Notes: generated by a model not told the origin, from the letters alone. A stretch of 64,000 nucleotides of DNA from an uncultured Candidatus Binatia bacterium (GCA_965220955.1 CBDCRK010000037.1:58928-122927), one strand, 5' to 3'. Positions 37,293 through 58,798 are shown, counted from the first letter of the stretch. Translations and numbers: made by a program.

Positions 37293-38030
37293 TGACCGCA
37301 GTCGATACCTACTTAGCCGTACGGCGGGCGGCAGGCTTTCAACTCAACCATCTTGAGGCCTATTTGCGCAGCTTCGCCCGCTTTATGCACGCGGAGAACC
37401 CGCGGCATGAGATCCCCCCCGCAAACCCTCTTCTGTGGGCGGCGCCAGCAACCGACCCCCTATATCTTTAGCGAGGCGGAAATCCAGCGCATTGTGGCTC
37501 ACGCGCGGCAACTCAGTCCCTTGGATTCGCTGCGGCCCTCTACCTACAGCACCCTGTTTGGTCTGCTCGCTGCCACGGGGATGAGTTGCGCGGAAGCTCG
37601 GGCGCTCCAGCTCAGCAATATCACTCCGGCTAGAATCCTCATCCGGGAAAGCAAGTTCAAGAAAAGCCGACTGCTCCCGCTGCACGACACAACCTGGGTG
37701 GCCCTGGAGGGCTACCTCGACCGGCGGCGGCGAGTCGCCGGCCACGATCCGCACCTGTTTGTCTCCCGCCGCGGCGGCAAGCTCTCTCACACCATCGTGG
37801 CCGAAACCTTCCATGCGGTAGTGCAAGCAGCTGGCGTTCCGAGTGAGCCAGGCAAACCCTGCCCCCGGCTCATGGACCTCCGGCATATCCTCGCCGTCCG
37901 CGGGCTCGAGACGTGTCTCGATGGCCGCGATCAAGTCCTTCATGCACTTTCCGGAGTACCGCGTCCCGGCCCACCTGGAGCAGATTCGCTAGGCCCTGGC
38001 CATCCCCGCAAAAAAACCAGCAGCCCCTGA
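37286..38030 (+). pseudogene. Tyrosine recombinase / phage-integrase family gene disrupted by at least two frameshifts
   Basis: N-terminal SAM-like domain (MLMTAVDTYLAVRRAAGF..LEAYLRSFARF) in one frame and the catalytic domain (IRESKFKKSRLLPLHD..HLFVSRRGGKL..LRHILAV) in another; the C-terminal HxxR..Y region shifts again. Confidence 0.6.
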
Positions 38031-38090
38031 TCCCGCATCTCTCCCTCACAGAATGTTAAGCTTGGCATCAACGAGGAGGAATTTTATCGC

Positions 38091-38633
38091 TTGGCGGATG
38101 AAAACAGCGATGGAGAGTACCTTGACGGAAGGATTGTCATGCATTCGCCTGCCTCAAATCGGCACGAGGATACTTCCCGTTTTCTCCTCACCCTCCTGAG
38201 CGCCTACCTGGATGAAAAAAGAGCAGCGGTGGGGCGCGGCTCCCGTTATCCGAGGCGTCTCGATGCCAGCTGGTCCCCGGAGCCTGATATCCTGGTAGTC
38301 CGCAAGAGTCGCCGGCAGCTTATGACGTCCCGCCGTTTGGAAGGGCCCGCCGATATGGTCATCGAGATCGCTTTGGAGAGCGACCCCAGGCTGGACTACC
38401 GTGAAAAGCTCCCACGCTATCGCCAGGCAGAGATCGAGGAGATCTGGATCATCAATCCCTTCGAGAACGATATCCTGGCGGAGGTAAAAACAACGGCCGG
38501 CTACACCACGCAGGTCCTGTCCTCGGGACAGCTAAGGTCCAAGGTACTGCCCGGTTTCTGGATCGAGGTCTCCTGGTTCTGGCAGGAGGAGTTGCCGCCA
38601 ACGCTCAGGTGCCTACGAGAAATCATGCAATAA
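38091..38633 (+). CDS. Uma2 family (DUF820) putative endonuclease
   Basis: EYLDGRIVMHSPA...PDILVV...EIALESD...Y..A.IEEIWIINP pattern of Uma2/PD-(D/E)xK; the frame stays open ~20 codons upstream without an ATG, so the start is uncertain (TTG at 38091). Confidence 0.6.
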   Translation: MADENSDGEYLDGRIVMHSPASNRHEDTSRFLLTLLSAYLDEKRAAVGRGSRYPRRLDASWSPEPDILVVRKSRRQLMTSRRLEGPADMVIEIALESDPRLDYREKLPRYRQAEIEEIWIINPFENDILAEVKTTAGYTTQVLSSGQLRSKVLPGFWIEVSWFWQEELPPTLRCLREIMQ

Positions 38634-39514
38634 TTCCTTAGTAGAGAGGAATAATCCCTTTTGCCCATTCTCATCCCTGTCCATCTCTTTCTTATAGGGG
38701 TGCCTATAGTCTCGGAAAGATAGCAATTCGCTAAGCGCCTGGTGGCTGTATTCGGACTCTGAAATCACCAGCCCGGCCAGAAACGCACCCAAGGCCAAAG
38801 AGAGTCCAGCTTGCGCTGTTACCCAGGCAGTACCCAACCCCAGAAGCAAGATACTAACTAAGAAGAGCTCACGGCTGCGCGTACGTACGACCTGATACAA
38901 TACCGTGGGGACAAGGTAACGGGTGGCAACAAGCACCAGAACCAGGACCCCCCCGCTTTCCCTACGACTACAAGCACAGGTTCTGATCCTTGAGCTCCAG
39001 CACCGGCTAAAAACGGAACCAGCAACATCATCAGCACAACGCTAAGATCCTGAAGAATTAGGATGCCTAGTGCAGTACGCCCCTGGGGACTATCGAGAGT
39101 AGCTTGCGCTGCCAGGAGCCTTACCACAATGGCAGTGCTGCTCAGAGAGATAAGGAAACCAAGGAACACAGAGGGGCCCATCGGCTGGCCCAACACTTGG
39201 GCGAGCACAAATACCACTCCTACCGTACCCAACACCTGCAGCGTCCCGCCCAGAAGCACAGCTCGCCGGATGAGCATAAGCTCCCGGAGGGAGAATTCGA
39301 TGCCAATGGTAAACAGCAGCATAACAACGCCAATTTCGGCCAGGACTTCAACTTCCTGCACCGCGGCGATCAGCTGCAACCCATGCGGACCAACTAGAAC
39401 TCCGATAAAGAGAAACCCCACAATGGTCGGTAACCGCAGGTAATGGAAAACAAAGAGGACCCCTAGGGACAAGCCAAAGATAATAATCAAGTCTGTTAGA
39501 ATATGCACTTCCAC
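38613..39514 (-). pseudogene. CPA2 (KefB/KefC-type) cation:proton antiporter membrane domain, frameshifted and truncated
   Basis: ORFs 38858..39514 and 38613..38936 together cover the Na_H_Exchanger TM domain with a frame change near 38900-38940; no C-terminal KTN/RCK domain. Confidence 0.55.
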
Positions 39515-40764: not shown

Positions 40765-41337
40765 ATGAGGTTCCTTCCAACTGACCTTCCAGGTGTTATT
40801 ATTGTTGAGCCAGATGTTCATCAAGACTCACGAGGATTTTTTTTAGAGACTTACCAGGCGCGAAAGTATCAGGAGGGTGGTATTCCTACTGTATTTGTGC
40901 AGGACAACCACTCGCGGTCAGTCCAAGGAACCATCCGGGGACTGCACGCACAGCTGCAGTACCCTCAGGGCAAGCTGGTGCGAGTAATTGAGGGTGAGAT
41001 TTATGATGTGGCGGTAGATCTTCGGCGTGGATCCCCAACCTTTAGTCGCTGGATCGGAGTTGCTTTATCCGCGGAGAACTTTCGACAGTGCTATATTCCT
41101 CCGGGCTTTGCCCACGGCTTCTGCGTCACCAGCGAGTTAGCCCAGATCGAATATAAATGCACGGATTTTTACCATCCCACTAGTGAAATTAGCCTCCGCT
41201 GGGATGACCCTGATTTGGGCATTACTTGGCCGGCGGTGACCCCAACTCTGTCCCCCAAGGACCTTGCAGCCCCATGCCTTCGTGACCTCATGGACAAACT
41301 CCCTGTCTTTCCGGAAGTGACCGGAAAAACCTTTTGA
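40765..41337 (+). CDS. rfbC: dTDP-4-dehydrorhamnose 3,5-epimerase
   Basis: RmlC cupin motifs ([35 protein letters not shown]). Confidence 0.85.
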
Positions 41338-41381: not shown

Positions 41382-41993
41382 CTACTTTTCGGCTTCTGCC
41401 AAAACCGCATCGAATAATTGCCGGTAACGCTCACGCGACAGCGCGCCTTCAACAACACGCCGCTTGCCCACAAACATTGTGGGAATCGCGGTCACCCGGT
41501 CTTGCTCTACCCCCATGCTGAACTCACGCCAGACCAGTTCCTTAAGCTCTGGATCAGTCATCTCTTCGTCAAAGCGTTCGAGGTCCGCGCCAACACTTGT
41601 TGCAATCTGCCGTAGCACCGCCGGATCTTCCAGGTTTTGGCTGAGGCTAAAGAACGCCCGCATGGCTTCTAGGTGGAAGGCGTTGAATAAGGCCGATCCC
41701 TGCCGAGCTATGGCCTTGCCAGCAATATGGGCGGGTAAACTAGTACTGGGGTAAGAAGTGCCCTGCCAGGGAGCAAAGGTTAGAGCAGGCTCAGCTTCCT
41801 GGGCCTTGTGCCAGTGTGCAGCCACATATCCGTTCCAGCCTTTGTGTGCATCCTCACGAAACAGGAGAAAGCTGCGCCACTGGATTGTGAGCCGCTCTTT
41901 ATACTCTTCTTGCAGGCAGTGTAGCCGCACCGCGGCCACATAACACCAGGGTCAAAGGTAATCGGAAAAAACTCGAACTATCACCGGTCGCAT
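41382..41993 (-). CDS. DsbA/FrnE-like thiol:disulfide oxidoreductase, predicted selenoprotein (in-frame TGA = Sec at 41952-41954)
   Basis: The ORF track starts at 41939, but the frame continues upstream through a TGA to an ATG at 41993 with RBS AGGAG 7 nt upstream. The N-terminus MRPVIVRVFSDYL-U-PWCYV reproduces the DsbA/FrnE active site FSDxxCPWCY with TGA in place of the first Cys. A 9-bp stem + GGU loop hairpin starts 11 nt after the TGA (SECIS-like). Confidence 0.6.
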
Positions 41994-42307
41994 ATCCTTA
42001 CTCCTGTATAAGCGCTATCATAGCACAGGTCCTGAGAGGAAAATCTCCCTAACTAAAAGGTTTTCTCCTATGCCCCGAACGACCCTATTCTTGCTGGGGA
42101 TAGGCATCCTGACAATCTCCACTGCTGCGCCGCTTATCAAGCTGGTCCCCCATGTACCTGCCTTGTAAGGTATAGGTACCCTCTTCATCCTGACCGGCAC
42201 TGGTCTCGGCCAAAAACAGAGGGAATAGGGACCATAGTAGGGAGTTGTGAAGTGACTGAACATTGTCTACAGTAGATCCTTAACAGTCAGCTGGAGGCTG
42301 GTTTCCC

Positions 42308-44329
42308 ATGAGCGAGCATCACGAAGCAGAAAGACAAGAAAGTCATCCAGAGTCCGGGCGTACTGAGCCCTATCGCCCTGGACGCCATCGTTACCTCAGG
42401 AAAAAGCCGCTGCAGGAGTCGCTGCAGATCTTCCTAGGGGCTGTGACTATGCCGTCCCGGCGTGCCGAAACCATAGCCGTTGAGGAGGCTCTCCACCGCG
42501 CTATTGCTCAACCCATTTTTGCCAAAATCTCCTCTCCTCATTACCATGGCGCTGCTATGGACGGTATTGCTGTGCGGGCTGAAGACACCTTTGGCGCTAG
42601 TGAAGTTGTTCCCCTTACCTTGAGCCTTAACTCCAAGAAGCCATCAGCCAGAGGGCAGAAGCCAACCGACGGATATCGGCCTTTTCAATACGTAGACACC
42701 GGTAGCCCTCTCCCATCTTGGGCCAACGCGGTGGTGATGATCGAACGGGTATTTAAACACAATGATCACGAGGTCGAGGTCCGCGACGCGGCTGCGCCCT
42801 GGCAGCACGTGCGTCTGGTTGGCGAGGATATTGTAGCCACGGAACCCCTACTCTCCCGCGGACACAAGGTTCGACCCTATGATATGGGAGCCCTTCTCGC
42901 CGCTGGGTATACGCGTATCCCAGTCAAACCCAAGCCCAGTGTAGCCATTATCCCTACAGGCAGCGAGCTCATTGAGCCTGGAGACAAGCCACAGCCCGGT
43001 CGCATCATTGAGTTTAACTCACGGGTGATGGCCGGGTTTATTGAGGAATGGGGAGGTCATCCCCATCGCCTACCACGAGTGAAGGATGATCTTACGGTGG
43101 TAACGGAGACCCTGGCTGCAGCGGTCTCACAGCATGATATTACCACCATCATTGCTGGTTCCTCGGCCGGGGAGCATGACTTCACCGTAAGAGCTATAGG
43201 AAAACTGGGCGAGGTTCTTGTCCATGGTATCGACATTATGCCCGGCAAGCCGGCCATTCTGGCCATCATCCAGGGGAAGCCGGTGGTTGGCATTCCCGGC
43301 TATCCAGTCTCCGCGGTTGTGGTCTGCCAACAGATTTTGCGCCCACTGATTGCCAAATTTCTTGGTTGTCCAGCAGAAGAGCCCCCCAAGGTCAAAGCTA
43401 TGACGGCAAAAAAAATTCCTTCACGGCTGGGCCTGGAAGAGTTTATACGGGTAAGCCTGGGAAAGGTTGGGAACCGGGTCATTATGAACCCCCTGGGACG
43501 CGGGGCCGGCGTTATTACTACCATGGTTAAAGCCGACGGCGTGTTGCGCATTCCTTCTTTAGACGAAGGGATCAATGCCGGACAGGAAATAGAGGTCGAA
43601 CTTTTGCGTCCGAGAGAGGATATTGACAACACCATCCTCTTTACCGGTAGCAATGACCTCACCATTGGCGTGCTGGACGATCAGCTCAAGACCCGTTATG
43701 CAGATCTCAGAATCTCGGCAAGCAATGTGGGTAGTCTTGGCGGGCTGGTATCGCTTAAGCGTGGAGAGGCCCACCTCATTGGTACCCACCTCCTTGATCC
43801 GGCTAGCGGAAAATACAACCTACCTGATATCAAAAAGTATCTCTCGCTCTCCAAGGTCATGGTCATGAACCTTGTCATCCGCGACCAAGGGCTGATTGTG
43901 GCCAAAGGGAATCCCAAGAAGCTCAAAGGCATCAAGGACCTGGTACGCAAAGACGTCACGTTCATGAACCGCCAGCCTGGTGCTGGCACTCGTGTCCTTC
44001 TGGACTACAAACTTAAAAAGTTTAAGATTCCTCCCGAACGGATCCACGGCTATGAAAAAGAAGAGTTCACCCATATGGCAGTAGCCGTGGCTGTGGCTAG
44101 CGGGCTGGTTGATACCGGCCTGGGGATCAAATCGGCAGCCATGGCCCTGGGGCTTGATTTTATCCCCGTTGAGCGGGAGGACTATGATCTGGTTTTTCTC
44201 AAAGAGTTTTTTGAGAACGATAGGGGTCAGAAGCTTGTCGAGGTTATCCGTTCCGATGCCTTTAAGCAGGCAGTAGAAAAACTCGAGGGCTATAACACTA
44301 CCAAGACAGGCACCCTCAAAAAAGCTTAG
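42308..44329 (+). CDS. moeA: MoeA (molybdopterin molybdotransferase) fused to a C-terminal periplasmic-binding-protein-like domain
   Basis: MoeA N-terminal, MoCF_biosynth and C-terminal domains, followed by a ~250-aa PBP-like domain; start may be the internal Met (~42446). Confidence 0.7.
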   Translation: MSEHHEAERQESHPESGRTEPYRPGRHRYLRKKPLQESLQIFLGAVTMPSRRAETIAVEEALHRAIAQPIFAKISSPHYHGAAMDGIAVRAEDTFGASEVVPLTLSLNSKKPSARGQKPTDGYRPFQYVDTGSPLPSWANAVVMIERVFKHNDHEVEVRDAAAPWQHVRLVGEDIVATEPLLSRGHKVRPYDMGALLAAGYTRIPVKPKPSVAIIPTGSELIEPGDKPQPGRIIEFNSRVMAGFIEEWGGHPHRLPRVKDDLTVVTETLAAAVSQHDITTIIAGSSAGEHDFTVRAIGKLGEVLVHGIDIMPGKPAILAIIQGKPVVGIPGYPVSAVVVCQQILRPLIAKFLGCPAEEPPKVKAMTAKKIPSRLGLEEFIRVSLGKVGNRVIMNPLGRGAGVITTMVKADGVLRIPSLDEGINAGQEIEVELLRPREDIDNTILFTGSNDLTIGVLDDQLKTRYADLRISASNVGSLGGLVSLKRGEAHLIGTHLLDPASGKYNLPDIKKYLSLSKVMVMNLVIRDQGLIVAKGNPKKLKGIKDLVRKDVTFMNRQPGAGTRVLLDYKLKKFKIPPERIHGYEKEEFTHMAVAVAVASGLVDTGLGIKSAAMALGLDFIPVEREDYDLVFLKEFFENDRGQKLVEVIRSDAFKQAVEKLEGYNTTKTGTLKKA

Positions 44330-55838: not shown

Positions 55839-56461
55839 TGTTTTCCTCCAAAGAATAGTGACCCTATCTTATATCCTGCCTACCCTAGCAATGTAAAGAT
55901 GCAACTACCCGGCTAAACAGTCACTGGGAGTAGTAGGAGTTTGCTGGCTCTATTTGTCAAAACATATAGAATTTTCTATATGTTACGCTGATTGGTCAAG
56001 AGGCGAAGATCGTATATGCTAAGCGAATTGGCAAAGAATCAGCTGAATGTTTTCAATCATCGGCCAGACTCTGAATATACCAAGAGACGGTTAGGCTTCC
56101 CAAGCGCGGTATTTCTATTAGGCCGATTGACCAGTATCTCTACGTAACATTCCAGGGGTCGGGCTACACAGGCCCCTTACTCGTTTTAGACCACTTATTT
56201 AATCTGACCCTGGTCTTAATCCTCTTTGCTCTCTGCGCCAGCACCGGAAGTTTAGTGCTAGTAGGATGGGGCTATACCTTATATACATAGGGTTACGACA
56301 TTGGGTGAAGGTGGGTTGAGGCATTGTGAAAGAGGGTATGGTGGAGGGGAATGAGTTAAGGAAAGAATTGCATTGCGACCCGTTAGGCTTTCGTCTATTT
56401 TGGGACAGCATAAAAAACAGGCCTCAAAGGCAAATAAAAACCCGTTCACCAGGAGGACGTG

Positions 56462-58798
56462 ATGGCAGGCGCTTTAGACGGCGTGCGGATTGTCGAATTG
56501 GCCCAAGGCATTGCCGGACCCTATACTGGTATGCTGCTCGCCGAACAGGGAGCAGATGTTATCAAAATCGAACCCCCTCAAGGGGATAAAGCCAGAGGTA
56601 CGCCAGGGTTTCATGTCTGGAATCGTAGCACGCGAAGCGTCATTGCTGACCCTGCAACTGCTGAAGGCAAAGACTTCATCCTCAGTCTTGCCTCTACTGC
56701 TGATATTGTTCTAACTGACTATCAGCCCGAAGAAGTAGAGAAACTTGGCCTAAACTACGAGGTTTTTTCTCAAGATAACCCCGGTCTTATTTACTGCCAC
56801 CTTCCTGCCTACGGCGGCTACGGCCCGCATGCTGGCCGCTATCCCGACGACACGCTAGTGGCCGCAGTGAGCGGCCTTCTGGGTAGTCAATGGTCTCACC
56901 GTGACGGTGGGGTATACCTGGTGCTTCCTATTGCTAGTTATGGGGCGGCCTTTGTTGCCAGTAGTTCCATCTCTGCTGCTCTCTTCGAGCGGGAGGGAAG
57001 TGGAAGAGGACAAAAGATTGAGGTTTCGTGGCTGGCTGGAGCCTTTGCTATGCAGAGCGGCACTATTCTTTATCACCCTGAATTGCTTCGCTTGTTCAGT
57101 GGCCGTCTCAACCCCCTAGGCCCAATCCCGGTCTATCGCCTGTATAAGGCTAAAGACGACTGGCTCTTTGTGGCTTGTGGGAACACAACCTTCTGGAACA
57201 AATTTTGTCTGGCACTTGAGCATCCGGAGTGGACTTCTGATCCACGTTACGAGAAGGCACCCTGGGGAATTGCCCCAGAGGACCGGGATGAACTCGCGGA
57301 GAGGATTGCTGCTGTCATTGCCGGTAAACCCCGTGAGGAATGGCTACGCATTCTACGAGAGTATGACGTGCCTTCTGCTCCGGTAACTAGTCGTCAGGAG
57401 TTCATTGATCACCCTCAAACTATCCACAATGGCATGCGGGTAGAAGTAGATGATCCGAAACTGGGCAAGACCGTGCAGATGGGGGTACCGGTGCGTATGT
57501 ATACAACCCCTGGGACCATTAAAGGACCTGCCCCATTGCTGGGACAGCATACAGACGAAGTCAAAAGAGAGGGAGTGAGGGCAGGTTTCAAACCTGCCCT
57601 CACCTCTTCATATTCTTCTTACCCTCTCCAGGGGGTCCTTGTTCTCGACTTTGCCAGCTACATTGCTGGCACCTATGGCCCCATGGTGCTGGCTCAGCTT
57701 GGAGCTACGGTCATCAAGGTTGAGTCGCTTCAGGGAGATGCGTTTCGCGCTTTTGGCTTTGGCTTCCTGGGATGGAATCAGGGGAAAAGGGGCATTTCCG
57801 TCAACCTGAACCAACCCGAGGGACGGGAGGTTATTTACGACCTGGTACGCAAGGCTGATGTTGTGGTGGAAAATCTCCGGCCCGGTGCCACAAAGCGCTA
57901 CGGTATTGACTATAAGACTCTCTCTGAGATCAATCCTCAATTGATTCATGCCACAGTTACGGGTTTTGGCTCTAGTGGCCCGGACCACAACCAGCCGGCG
58001 TTTGATCCTCTCCTCCAAGCTCGCTCCGGAATCATGCAAGCTCAGGGTGGGCACGGGCATCCGCCTTTCTATCTCACCTGTGGAGTGTGTGATTATGCTG
58101 CCGCACTGCTCAGCGCCTATGGTGTCTGTGCCGCCCTCTATGCCCGTAGACGAGGGGGTAAAGGCCAGAGGATTGAGACTTCTCTTTCCCAGGCTTCTAT
58201 TGCGGTACAGTCAGGAAGTTTTATTTTCTACAAAGGCCGGCCGGATTTAGAGAACGGCGGGCCAGACTTATGGGGAACCAGTGACCTGTATCGCATTTAC
58301 CTCACTGCCAACAACTCCCTCTTTCTTGCTGTTCTAGAAGACCCCCACTGGCAGGCACTCTGCAGTGCTATTCGGCGAACGGACCTGAGCGACCGTTACA
58401 GTTTCCATCAGGCTTGCCGGGAAAGTGTGGAAAGCCCGCTGGGAGAGATACTGGCAGAAATCTTCGCAAGCAAGACAACCGAAGAGTGGGTCTCACTCCT
58501 GGATACCGTTGGGGTCCCCTGCGCGCCGATATTACCCCTTCCTCAACTCTTTAGCGACGAGCACGTTGTGGCCAACGACCTACTTGCCACCCACACCCAC
58601 CCCCAGTGGGGTGAAGTACGACAGACCGGCATCTTTGCTAAATTCTCCCGCACCGCCGCAACCGTTCCCTATGCAGCCCCACTCCTGGGACAGCACACCA
58701 CGGAGGTGTTGCAAGAGGTGGTAGGATACGATGAGGAGAGAATTCAAATGCTGCTGAACGCTGGTGTCATCAAACAGGCGCTGTGGAAGAATCAATGA
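56462..58798 (+). CDS. Fusion of two family-III CoA-transferase (CaiB/BaiF) domains
   Basis: 779 aa; two complete CoA_trans_3 units, each starting with the GxRIVELAQGIAGPY / GVLVLDFASYIAGTY glycine-rich motif; RBS AGGAGG before the ATG at 56462. Confidence 0.75.
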   Translation: MAGALDGVRIVELAQGIAGPYTGMLLAEQGADVIKIEPPQGDKARGTPGFHVWNRSTRSVIADPATAEGKDFILSLASTADIVLTDYQPEEVEKLGLNYEVFSQDNPGLIYCHLPAYGGYGPHAGRYPDDTLVAAVSGLLGSQWSHRDGGVYLVLPIASYGAAFVASSSISAALFEREGSGRGQKIEVSWLAGAFAMQSGTILYHPELLRLFSGRLNPLGPIPVYRLYKAKDDWLFVACGNTTFWNKFCLALEHPEWTSDPRYEKAPWGIAPEDRDELAERIAAVIAGKPREEWLRILREYDVPSAPVTSRQEFIDHPQTIHNGMRVEVDDPKLGKTVQMGVPVRMYTTPGTIKGPAPLLGQHTDEVKREGVRAGFKPALTSSYSSYPLQGVLVLDFASYIAGTYGPMVLAQLGATVIKVESLQGDAFRAFGFGFLGWNQGKRGISVNLNQPEGREVIYDLVRKADVVVENLRPGATKRYGIDYKTLSEINPQLIHATVTGFGSSGPDHNQPAFDPLLQARSGIMQAQGGHGHPPFYLTCGVCDYAAALLSAYGVCAALYARRRGGKGQRIETSLSQASIAVQSGSFIFYKGRPDLENGGPDLWGTSDLYRIYLTANNSLFLAVLEDPHWQALCSAIRRTDLSDRYSFHQACRESVESPLGEILAEIFASKTTEEWVSLLDTVGVPCAPILPLPQLFSDEHVVANDLLATHTHPQWGEVRQTGIFAKFSRTAATVPYAAPLLGQHTTEVLQEVVGYDEERIQMLLNAGVIKQALWKNQ

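Follow-up and report, generated by a model that had tools for sequence, protein, structure and literature searches.

The question raised by this locus is whether an in-frame TGA near the beginning of a DsbA/FrnE-like gene ends translation or encodes selenocysteine (Sec) at the first position of the catalytic motif. The gene lies on the minus strand of a 64,000-nucleotide stretch of DNA (hereafter the window) from an uncultured Candidatus Binatia bacterium, at positions 41382..41993, and comprises 203 codons followed by a TAG stop. In this work, the frame was re-read from the ATG at 41993-41991 through its sole in-frame TGA at 41954-41952 to the TAG at 41384-41382, exactly as the initial annotation had given it; its other statements on the sequence were correct as well. 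The translation across the TGA is MRPVIVRVFSDYL*PWCYVAAVRLHCLQ.... The TGA is codon 14 and aligns with the first cysteine (Cys) of the CPWC motif of homologs, and the proposed redox motif on the minus strand at 41943..41954 (TGA CCC TGG TGT) would thus read U-P-W-C. From the comparisons of sequences described below, we consider it very likely that 41382-41993 is a genuine Sec-decoding gene, whose product is a FrnE/DsbM-type cytoplasmic oxidoreductase with a U-P-W-C centre. The initial proposal that Sec takes the place of the first Cys in CxxC is supported by the pattern of TGA and Cys codons among orthologs, by selection around the TGA and by a hairpin 3' of it. It is the conserved TGA and the selection pattern, rather than the hairpin, that carry the selenoprotein argument.

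The ortholog DNA was taken from genome and metagenome collections and from an exact-protein look-up, and the loci are cited below by L numbers. In a protein search, part of the close relatives (65-84% identity) were full-length proteins of 200-231 aa reading ...FSDYLCPWCYVAA..., and the others were truncated models starting with M/VAA(A/V)RLH right after the TGA or at later Met codons. The window shares a TGA at the identical codon with L002, L003, L007-L017, L020, L022 and L026-29. The TGA-bearing relatives amount to about 14 distinct sequences (13 in a 14-row, 55-nt alignment, plus L022) with 68-83% identity, and they come mostly from Candidatus Binatia or soil metagenomes. The same codon is TGC or TGT in eight close loci (L001, L005/6, L018/19, L030, L031 and L032) and also in the distant homologs L033-35. 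The presence of TGA in some orthologs and of a Cys codon in others is the classical selenoprotein signature. Moreover, C14, P15, W16 and C17 are invariant across 30 Cys homologs, and FSDYL-U-PWC of the window gene is matched by FSDYL-C-PWC in Cys-containing homologs. The closest full-length relative is the Cys form L030 (83% identity), which is syntenic with the window through the DsbA-like, HSP20, TenA and class II ribonucleotide reductase genes. Where relatives carry an organism label, they are Candidatus Binatia metagenome-assembled genomes or bear the older label 'Deltaproteobacteria bacterium'. Judged by this one gene family and the synteny, a Binatia (phylum Binatota) genome is the most likely source of the window.

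Selection on the two sides of the TGA was compared in the 12 main-clade TGA sequences. In the nine codons 5' of the TGA, the proportions of synonymous (pS) and nonsynonymous (pN) differences were 0.59 and 0.054, respectively, which gives a pN/pS of 0.09, and the gene body has a pN/pS of 0.145. The upstream peptide is therefore translated in one frame with the remainder of the protein. The N-terminal stretch, whose lack of conservation would have spoken for a plain nonsense mutation, is instead under purifying selection. The length of the gene is also constant, at 200-202 codons across orthologs. With Cys put in for the stop, the Pfam family DSBA (PF01323) matches the 203-residue product at 76.5 bits (cut-off 25.6) over residues 6-191, so that the stretch 5' of the TGA is part of the domain. 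The structure was considered on the AlphaFold model of an 83%-identical Cys ortholog, P0002. In this model, with a predicted local distance difference test score (pLDDT) of 92.9, strand beta-1 of the thioredoxin fold covers residues 4-10 and helix alpha-1 residues 15-30, and the redox motif lies between the strand and the N-terminus of the helix. An alternative genetic code with UGA read as Trp or Gly was rejected because TGA is the stop of three of the 14 homology-supported genes in the window and also ends orthologous DsbA-like genes themselves, which indicates the standard code.

Directly 3' of the UGA, the transcript can form a SECIS-like (selenocysteine insertion sequence) stem-loop at 41915..41947 on the minus strand, with 20 nt from the UGA to the loop. 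Its upper stem of 9 bp (41940-41932 with 41928-41920) closes on the apical loop GGU (41931-41929), and a lower stem of 4 bp is formed by 41947-41944 with 41918-41915. The hairpin UGUGGCCGC-GGU-GCGGCUACA at 41940-41920 begins 11 nt past the UGA; the stem, loop and distance given in the initial annotation were all reproduced, and on folding the hairpin proved to be the core of the minimum free energy (MFE) structure (-21.4 kcal/mol over 66 nt, z = -2.2 versus dinucleotide shuffles). The four published criteria for bacterial SECIS elements (bSECIS) require a loop of 3-9 nt with a G in its first two positions, an upper stem of 4-16 bp, and a UGA-to-loop distance of 16-37 nt with an MFE <= -7.5 kcal/mol (quoted in PMC13188914). 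The window hairpin falls within these limits (distance 20, loop GGU, 9 contiguous pairs, -14.0 kcal/mol), and the other main-clade TGA sequences do so as well (11/11 tested). Its description as SECIS-like thus fits the bacterial model, though Cys forms carry the hairpin as well.

The frequency of such hairpins was estimated against three backgrounds. Among the 2018 TGA triplets of the window, 1.8% pass the bSECIS criteria and 0.15% have a stem >= 8 bp with a free energy (dG) <= -14. For the 7042 in-frame positions of the 14 homology-supported genes, the proportions are 3.2% and, with a stem >= 8 bp and dG <= -11, 0.6%. When the same peptide is recoded synonymously, 8.3% of the sequences pass and 1.7% reach the stem >= 8 bp and dG <= -11. 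Such a hairpin and a downstream run of >= 60 open codons occur together at just five TGAs of the window, of which only that at 41952-41954 sits in a gene with a homology-supported frame. Constraint at the RNA level was evaluated in the 13 distinct TGA sequences, in which 94.7% of the pair cells hold standard pairs, compared with 30-68% when the partners are slid. Moreover, synonymous change is absent from only six of the 62 columns in which the amino acid is invariant and the degeneracy at least fourfold, and four of these six (Pro11, Ala16, Ala17 and Arg19) fall within the 11 codons after the UGA (Fisher p = 4e-4). The pS falls to 0.31 over these 11 codons, and the lowest-diversity six-codon window of the whole gene begins in the stem.

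Several observations weigh against Sec decoding at this codon, and most of them concern the hairpin. The stem substitutions are all one-sided and wobble-compatible (G-C/G-U, A-U/G-U), and double compensatory changes were found in none of the 13 distinct TGA sequences. The whole hairpin is present in L001, L005, L018 and L030, which are close Cys orthologs, and three of five divergent Cys homologs also pass the bSECIS criteria (L031, L033 and L034, and not L032 and L035). Compared with synonymous recodings, the stability of the window hairpin is marginal (z = -1.8, p = 0.05). In the L003/L026 subclade, which carries TGA, this z is about 0 and a strict implementation of the criteria is failed; the upper stem is weaker and interrupted there, which is compensated by a 7-bp lower stem. 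No Rfam family matched, either at gathering thresholds over the whole window or with E up to 10 over 41800-42050, a result that is uninformative because Rfam models cover bacterial SECIS elements poorly. Furthermore, no gene of the Sec machinery was recognized near the locus. Neither selA, selB nor selD was present among the 49 Pfam-annotated open reading frames (ORFs) of the 64-kb window, in which ARAGORN found no tRNA at all. There was no tRNA-Sec in 12 related loci by the same program, only tRNA-Ala and tRNA-Gly in two of them, and no Sec machinery among the Pfam-annotated genes around L026-L029. The z values against synonymous recodings range from -1.2 to -3.5 in the main clade and from -1.3 to -3.0 in the Cys forms, and hairpin stability was rejected as a discriminator between Sec and Cys, since Cys orthologs score alike and the L003 subclade lies near zero. 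Thus, the hairpin is consistent with a SECIS element and is under RNA-level constraint, and it is not by itself diagnostic.

Among the rival explanations, the one that survives best is readthrough without selenium, in which the UGA is decoded as a standard residue, either by near-cognate tRNA-Trp or tRNA-Cys or by a SelB-dependent tRNA that carries Cys. In every locus a C follows the UGA, a context in which termination is weak. None of the stretches scanned showed Sec machinery, and Cys at residue 14 is clearly functional, since Cys orthologs exist. On the other hand, what defines bacterial selenoproteins is a conserved UGA in the place of a redox Cys, accompanied by a SECIS-type hairpin at the canonical distance, and the UxxC members of the PF01323 family are documented as selenoproteins (PMC1088965, PMC13188914). 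Low-level leakiness, moreover, would not explain why TGA and not TGC or TGT is found in most lineages. Readthrough of this kind is therefore improbable.

The second rival concerns the start of translation and supposes that the truncated product is real, i.e. that initiation takes place at the GTG at 41937..41939 and yields a 185-aa DsbA-fold protein without a redox motif. In the mechanical ORF list the gene is indeed present only as this GTG-started piece (41382..41939), which is without the catalytic motif, as the initial annotation had observed. The GTG is in frame, and the same model is carried by public databases (P0001), in which gene models are cut at the N-terminus; the 185-aa 'DsbA family protein' MBI3301413.1 is an example, and the truncation by automated annotation that had been predicted is thus borne out. 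No NCBIfam model recognises the window protein, which accounts for the truncated public annotations. In addition, DsbA-fold proteins with a single Cys or none exist, e.g. DR_2335 (PMC8945050). Nevertheless, the codon that gene callers take as the start is GTG in only seven of the 12 main-clade TGA sequences and the non-start codon GTA in the other five, so there is no conserved internal start. In the window it is a Val codon inside the stable hairpin, without a Shine-Dalgarno sequence, and a start there would remove strand beta-1 and the beginning of helix alpha-1. The 9-13 codons 5' of the TGA are under strong purifying selection. The Shine-Dalgarno-like AGGAG on the minus strand at 42001..42005 stands 7 nt 5' of the ATG at 41993, as first noted, and the promoter-like element described next also lies 5' of this ATG. 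For these reasons, we regard it as very improbable that the 185-aa protein is the real product. The GTG at 41984 (minus strand), which aligns with the start of most orthologs, is an alternative start for the full-length protein.

The upstream element is a conserved non-coding segment at 42014..42060 on the minus strand and a probable promoter. It follows the pattern GGGCTT(T/C)(T/C)CCTTCTC...CC(A/G)TGCTATGGTAGCCCGCACG and is kept in most main-clade loci, in Sec and Cys forms alike, at the matching position in L001, L002, L005 and L008-L020. Within it lies the extended -10-like sequence TGCTATGAT (42025-42017), of the form TGnTATGRT (TGCTATGRT in most main-clade loci), about 25-30 nt 5' of the start. 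Judged by its conservation, the element is probably a promoter with an operator, which would place the transcript start upstream of the ATG and hence upstream of the TGA. A scan with the promoter consensus gave another, weak site at 42115-42087. The element also holds the small palindrome GCTATGGTAGC, and gene callers sometimes begin ORFs at its internal ATG. The overlapping orf81 (42018-42263, minus strand, 81 codons), which directly precedes the DsbA-like gene, was rejected as a gene because it has no family match and an implausible translation, and because the conserved promoter-like DNA accounts for its likeness to L007 and L012.

The weakest rival is a decaying pseudogene in which the TGA is a plain nonsense mutation, a reading that agrees with the lack of Sec machinery in the window and with gene callers everywhere taking the TGA as a stop, and that is nonetheless extremely improbable. 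About 14 distinct sequences with up to ~45% nucleotide difference have retained this TGA, and they come from independent JGI, ENA and NCBI assemblies and are not assembly copies of one sequence. The codon is never TAA or TAG, no frameshifts occur, pN/pS is 0.09 upstream and 0.145 downstream of the TGA, and the gene length is conserved at 200-202 codons.

For the Sec-decoding gene, we propose the following course of expression. The ribosome would start at the ATG at 41993 (or the GTG at 41984) and meet the UGA at codon 14. The stem-loop at 41915-47 directly 3' of this UGA would tether SelB-GTP-Sec-tRNA(Sec), so that Sec is inserted in place of termination and translation runs on to the TAG at 41382. 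We infer decoding by Sec and SelB from the pattern at the codon and the hairpin. In the product, Sec would be the N-terminal, nucleophilic residue of the CxxC redox centre and would cycle between the selenol/thiol and the selenenylsulfide form (U14-C17), reducing or isomerising client disulfides. The protein would accordingly act as a disulfide reductase or isomerase through the U14-C17 selenenylsulfide.

The placement of the protein among DsbA-like enzymes was examined by sequence and by fold. The match to PF01323 and the best sequence match in the PDB, FrnE of Deinococcus radiodurans (E = 1.3e-6), support the original assignment to the DsbA/FrnE family, with FrnE as the closest solved relative by sequence. 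Foldseek put the P0002 model into the cytosolic DsbA-like group and gave 2in3 first, with a template modelling (TM) score of 0.86, followed by YjbH, HCCA isomerase, D. radiodurans FrnE (TM 0.77) and DsbM, and periplasmic DsbAs came lower (TM 0.52-0.65). Placement in the FrnE subfamily (cd03024) is thus approximate, because 2in3 is structurally closer than FrnE (TM 0.86 versus 0.77). Strand beta-1 begins at residue 4, which leaves no room for a signal peptide; its absence was judged by inspection, without a predictor, and suggests a cytoplasmic location. The only Cys residues of the window protein are C17 and the non-conserved C26, and the C-terminus is ...DAVLAEAEK. A classical periplasmic DsbA was rejected, since there is no signal peptide, the motif is UPWC instead of CPHC and no dsbB lies nearby. 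The Rcas_1661 family thioredoxin-like (seleno)lipoprotein (NF041057) was rejected as well, with 26.6 bits against a cut-off of 190.

The distribution of Sec and Cys forms also bears on how the codon evolved. A neighbour-joining tree built from the coding sequences places the Cys forms L030, L001/L005 and L018/L019 at separate positions within the TGA clade, and each Cys lineage is nearer to TGA sequences (84-91% nucleotide identity) than to other Cys lineages. This branching implies at least three independent switches between Sec and Cys, a count that is provisional because the tree is unbootstrapped. Recent derivation from TGA forms would explain why the hairpin is retained in the Cys forms. 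We tentatively hypothesize, as a possibility somewhat short of even, that the gene has toggled between Sec and Cys at least three times in Binatia, that the hairpin, whose sequence comes partly from the codons of a peptide, YVAA(A/V)RLH, conserved even in distant Cys-only homologs, persists as a latent SECIS making the switch a reversible one-nucleotide event, and that the uncharacterised, Binatia-restricted lipoprotein whose gene is translationally coupled to it in most relatives may be a client. If this holds, the clade would offer a natural series in which to follow the origin and loss of bacterial SECIS elements. At L022:3001-3600 (contig Ga0187894_10000056) the TGA is kept, the second Cys is replaced by Gly (U-P-W-G), the hairpin is degraded and there is no obvious ATG at the usual start; this locus is either a single-Sec variant or a decaying copy. 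L002 (CAZAYE010000007.1) is labelled 'uncultured Enterobacteriaceae bacterium', yet it carries the Binatia-type gene (81% identity) and the lipoprotein partner, and the label is probably wrong.

The coupled gene was found at almost all related loci, Sec and Cys alike, where the start of an ORF of 123-156 aa shares 4 nt (ATGA) with the DsbA-like gene (L002:10603-11004, L012:3603-3995, L026:10561-10932, L001:7196-7657, L010:1935-2360, L022:3606-3986 and L032:1642-2034). Its product has a lipoprotein-type signal peptide, a block KKVECCE(N/K)KAACC(Y/F)xQMCCLPRYAKAAG with three CC pairs, a PQ/E-rich tail and the conserved C-terminus GF(L/F)GRL(W/L)PF. It belongs to no Pfam or NCBIfam family and is represented in 92 database clusters, of which those with an organism label are Binatia or 'Deltaproteobacteria'. 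This Cys-rich lipoprotein may be a client or partner of the oxidoreductase; its ORF is absent from the window and from the closest relative, L030. Relative to L030, the window has insertions at 37353-39514 and 40765-41337. The former, between TenA and HSP20, contains a truncated phage-integrase-family ORF (225 aa), an ORF for a Uma2-family endonuclease and a truncated fragment of a Na+/H+ exchanger, and the latter, between HSP20 and the DsbA-like gene, contains a lone dTDP-4-dehydrorhamnose 3,5-epimerase gene (rmlC). Divergent from the DsbA-like gene, 42308-44329 on the plus strand encodes a MoeA (molybdopterin molybdenumtransferase) that bears a fused PBP-like domain (PF12727) at its C-terminus, a neighbourhood that is not conserved in relatives. 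A scan of the window for in-frame TGAs flanked by open frames, whether or not a hairpin followed, yielded no second selenoprotein. The only other strong candidate was a TGA at 57610 on the minus strand, followed by a 12-bp hairpin of -20.8 kcal/mol (~57550-57610, minus strand). It was rejected because it lies antisense within the well-supported two-domain CoA-transferase family III gene 56459-58798 (plus strand), which scores 661 bits.

The value of the locus lies in the repair of annotation, in Sec/Cys pairs for enzymology and in the coupled Cys-rich lipoprotein gene of the relatives. The gene and about two dozen database clusters of its orthologs are stored as truncated "DsbA family proteins" without the catalytic motif, and since no NCBIfam model rescues these proteins, Binatia (Binatota) have an under-annotated selenoproteome. 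The users of a Sec-containing cytoplasmic disulfide oxidoreductase would gain a lineage from soil and groundwater. Furthermore, the close pairs of Sec and Cys orthologs, with up to 91% nucleotide identity, are suited to studies of the catalytic benefit of Sec and of SECIS evolution.

Among solved proteins, the closest by sequence is FrnE of D. radiodurans (DR_0659; PDB 5cnw and others), which is a cytoplasmic disulfide oxidoreductase/isomerase (PMC8945050). The two proteins share the fold, a CP(W/F)C-type site in the equal place and the lack of a signal peptide, but the identity is only ~21% and FrnE has Cys where the window protein would have Sec. The C-terminal CxxxxC tail that regenerates the active site of D. 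radiodurans FrnE is not found in the window protein, which has 203 aa and no C-terminal Cys. The FrnE proteins of Streptomyces roseofulvus and D. maricopensis are likewise without it (PMC8945050), and because the S. roseofulvus FrnE is without the tail, the CxxxxC tail is not strictly defining for FrnE. The nearest solved folds, namely 2in3 (putative protein disulfide isomerase NE), Pseudomonas aeruginosa DsbM (5hfg), YjbH (6ghb), HCCA isomerase and kappa-class GST, share the DsbA-like thioredoxin domain with a helical insertion and belong to the cytosolic subgroup (TM 0.72-0.86). They differ in being Cys or non-redox proteins of 13-23% identity, and their functions are so varied that the substrate cannot be read from the fold match.

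In comparison with the SECIS elements of E. coli fdhF and fdnG and with the bSECISearch consensus, the hairpin of the window shares the position directly 3' of the UGA within the coding region, a small apical loop starting with GG or GU, a distance of 20 nt (range 16-37) and a dG well below -7.5 kcal/mol. It differs in its loop of 3 nt (GGU or GGC), in having no obvious bulged U and in its persistence in Cys orthologs.

The known selenoprotein family to which the gene comes closest is the 'DsbA-like protein' (COG2761, the FrnE COG; PF01323) with a UxxC motif. It was among the selenoprotein families discovered in the metagenome of the Sargasso Sea, from which it was first described (Zhang, Fomenko & Gladyshev 2005; PMC1088965), was afterwards recognised in the genomes of Anaeromyxobacter, Desulfovibrio and Desulfotomaculum (PMC1794560), and appears under the name 'DsbA-like protein form 1, UxxC' in a review of 2026 (PMC13188914). 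The present clade differs from the published form 1 in its occurrence in Candidatus Binatia and in soil or groundwater metagenomes, and in having no dedicated NCBIfam model; a literature search found no paper linking Binatota or Binatia to selenoproteins. The likeness to the published form, whose representative is NIP15863.1, rests on the described features. These features are the PF01323 domain, Sec as the first residue of CxxC, widespread Cys homologs and a bacterial-type SECIS that follows the UGA directly and has G in its apical loop, and all the sequence-level features that define the UxxC family are present in the window gene. As UxxC DsbA-like selenoproteins have been established since 2005, the gene represents no new mechanism. 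It would work by the standard bacterial route, leaves the knowledge of Sec decoding unchanged, and very probably adds to a known selenoprotein family a lineage that has not been discussed previously.

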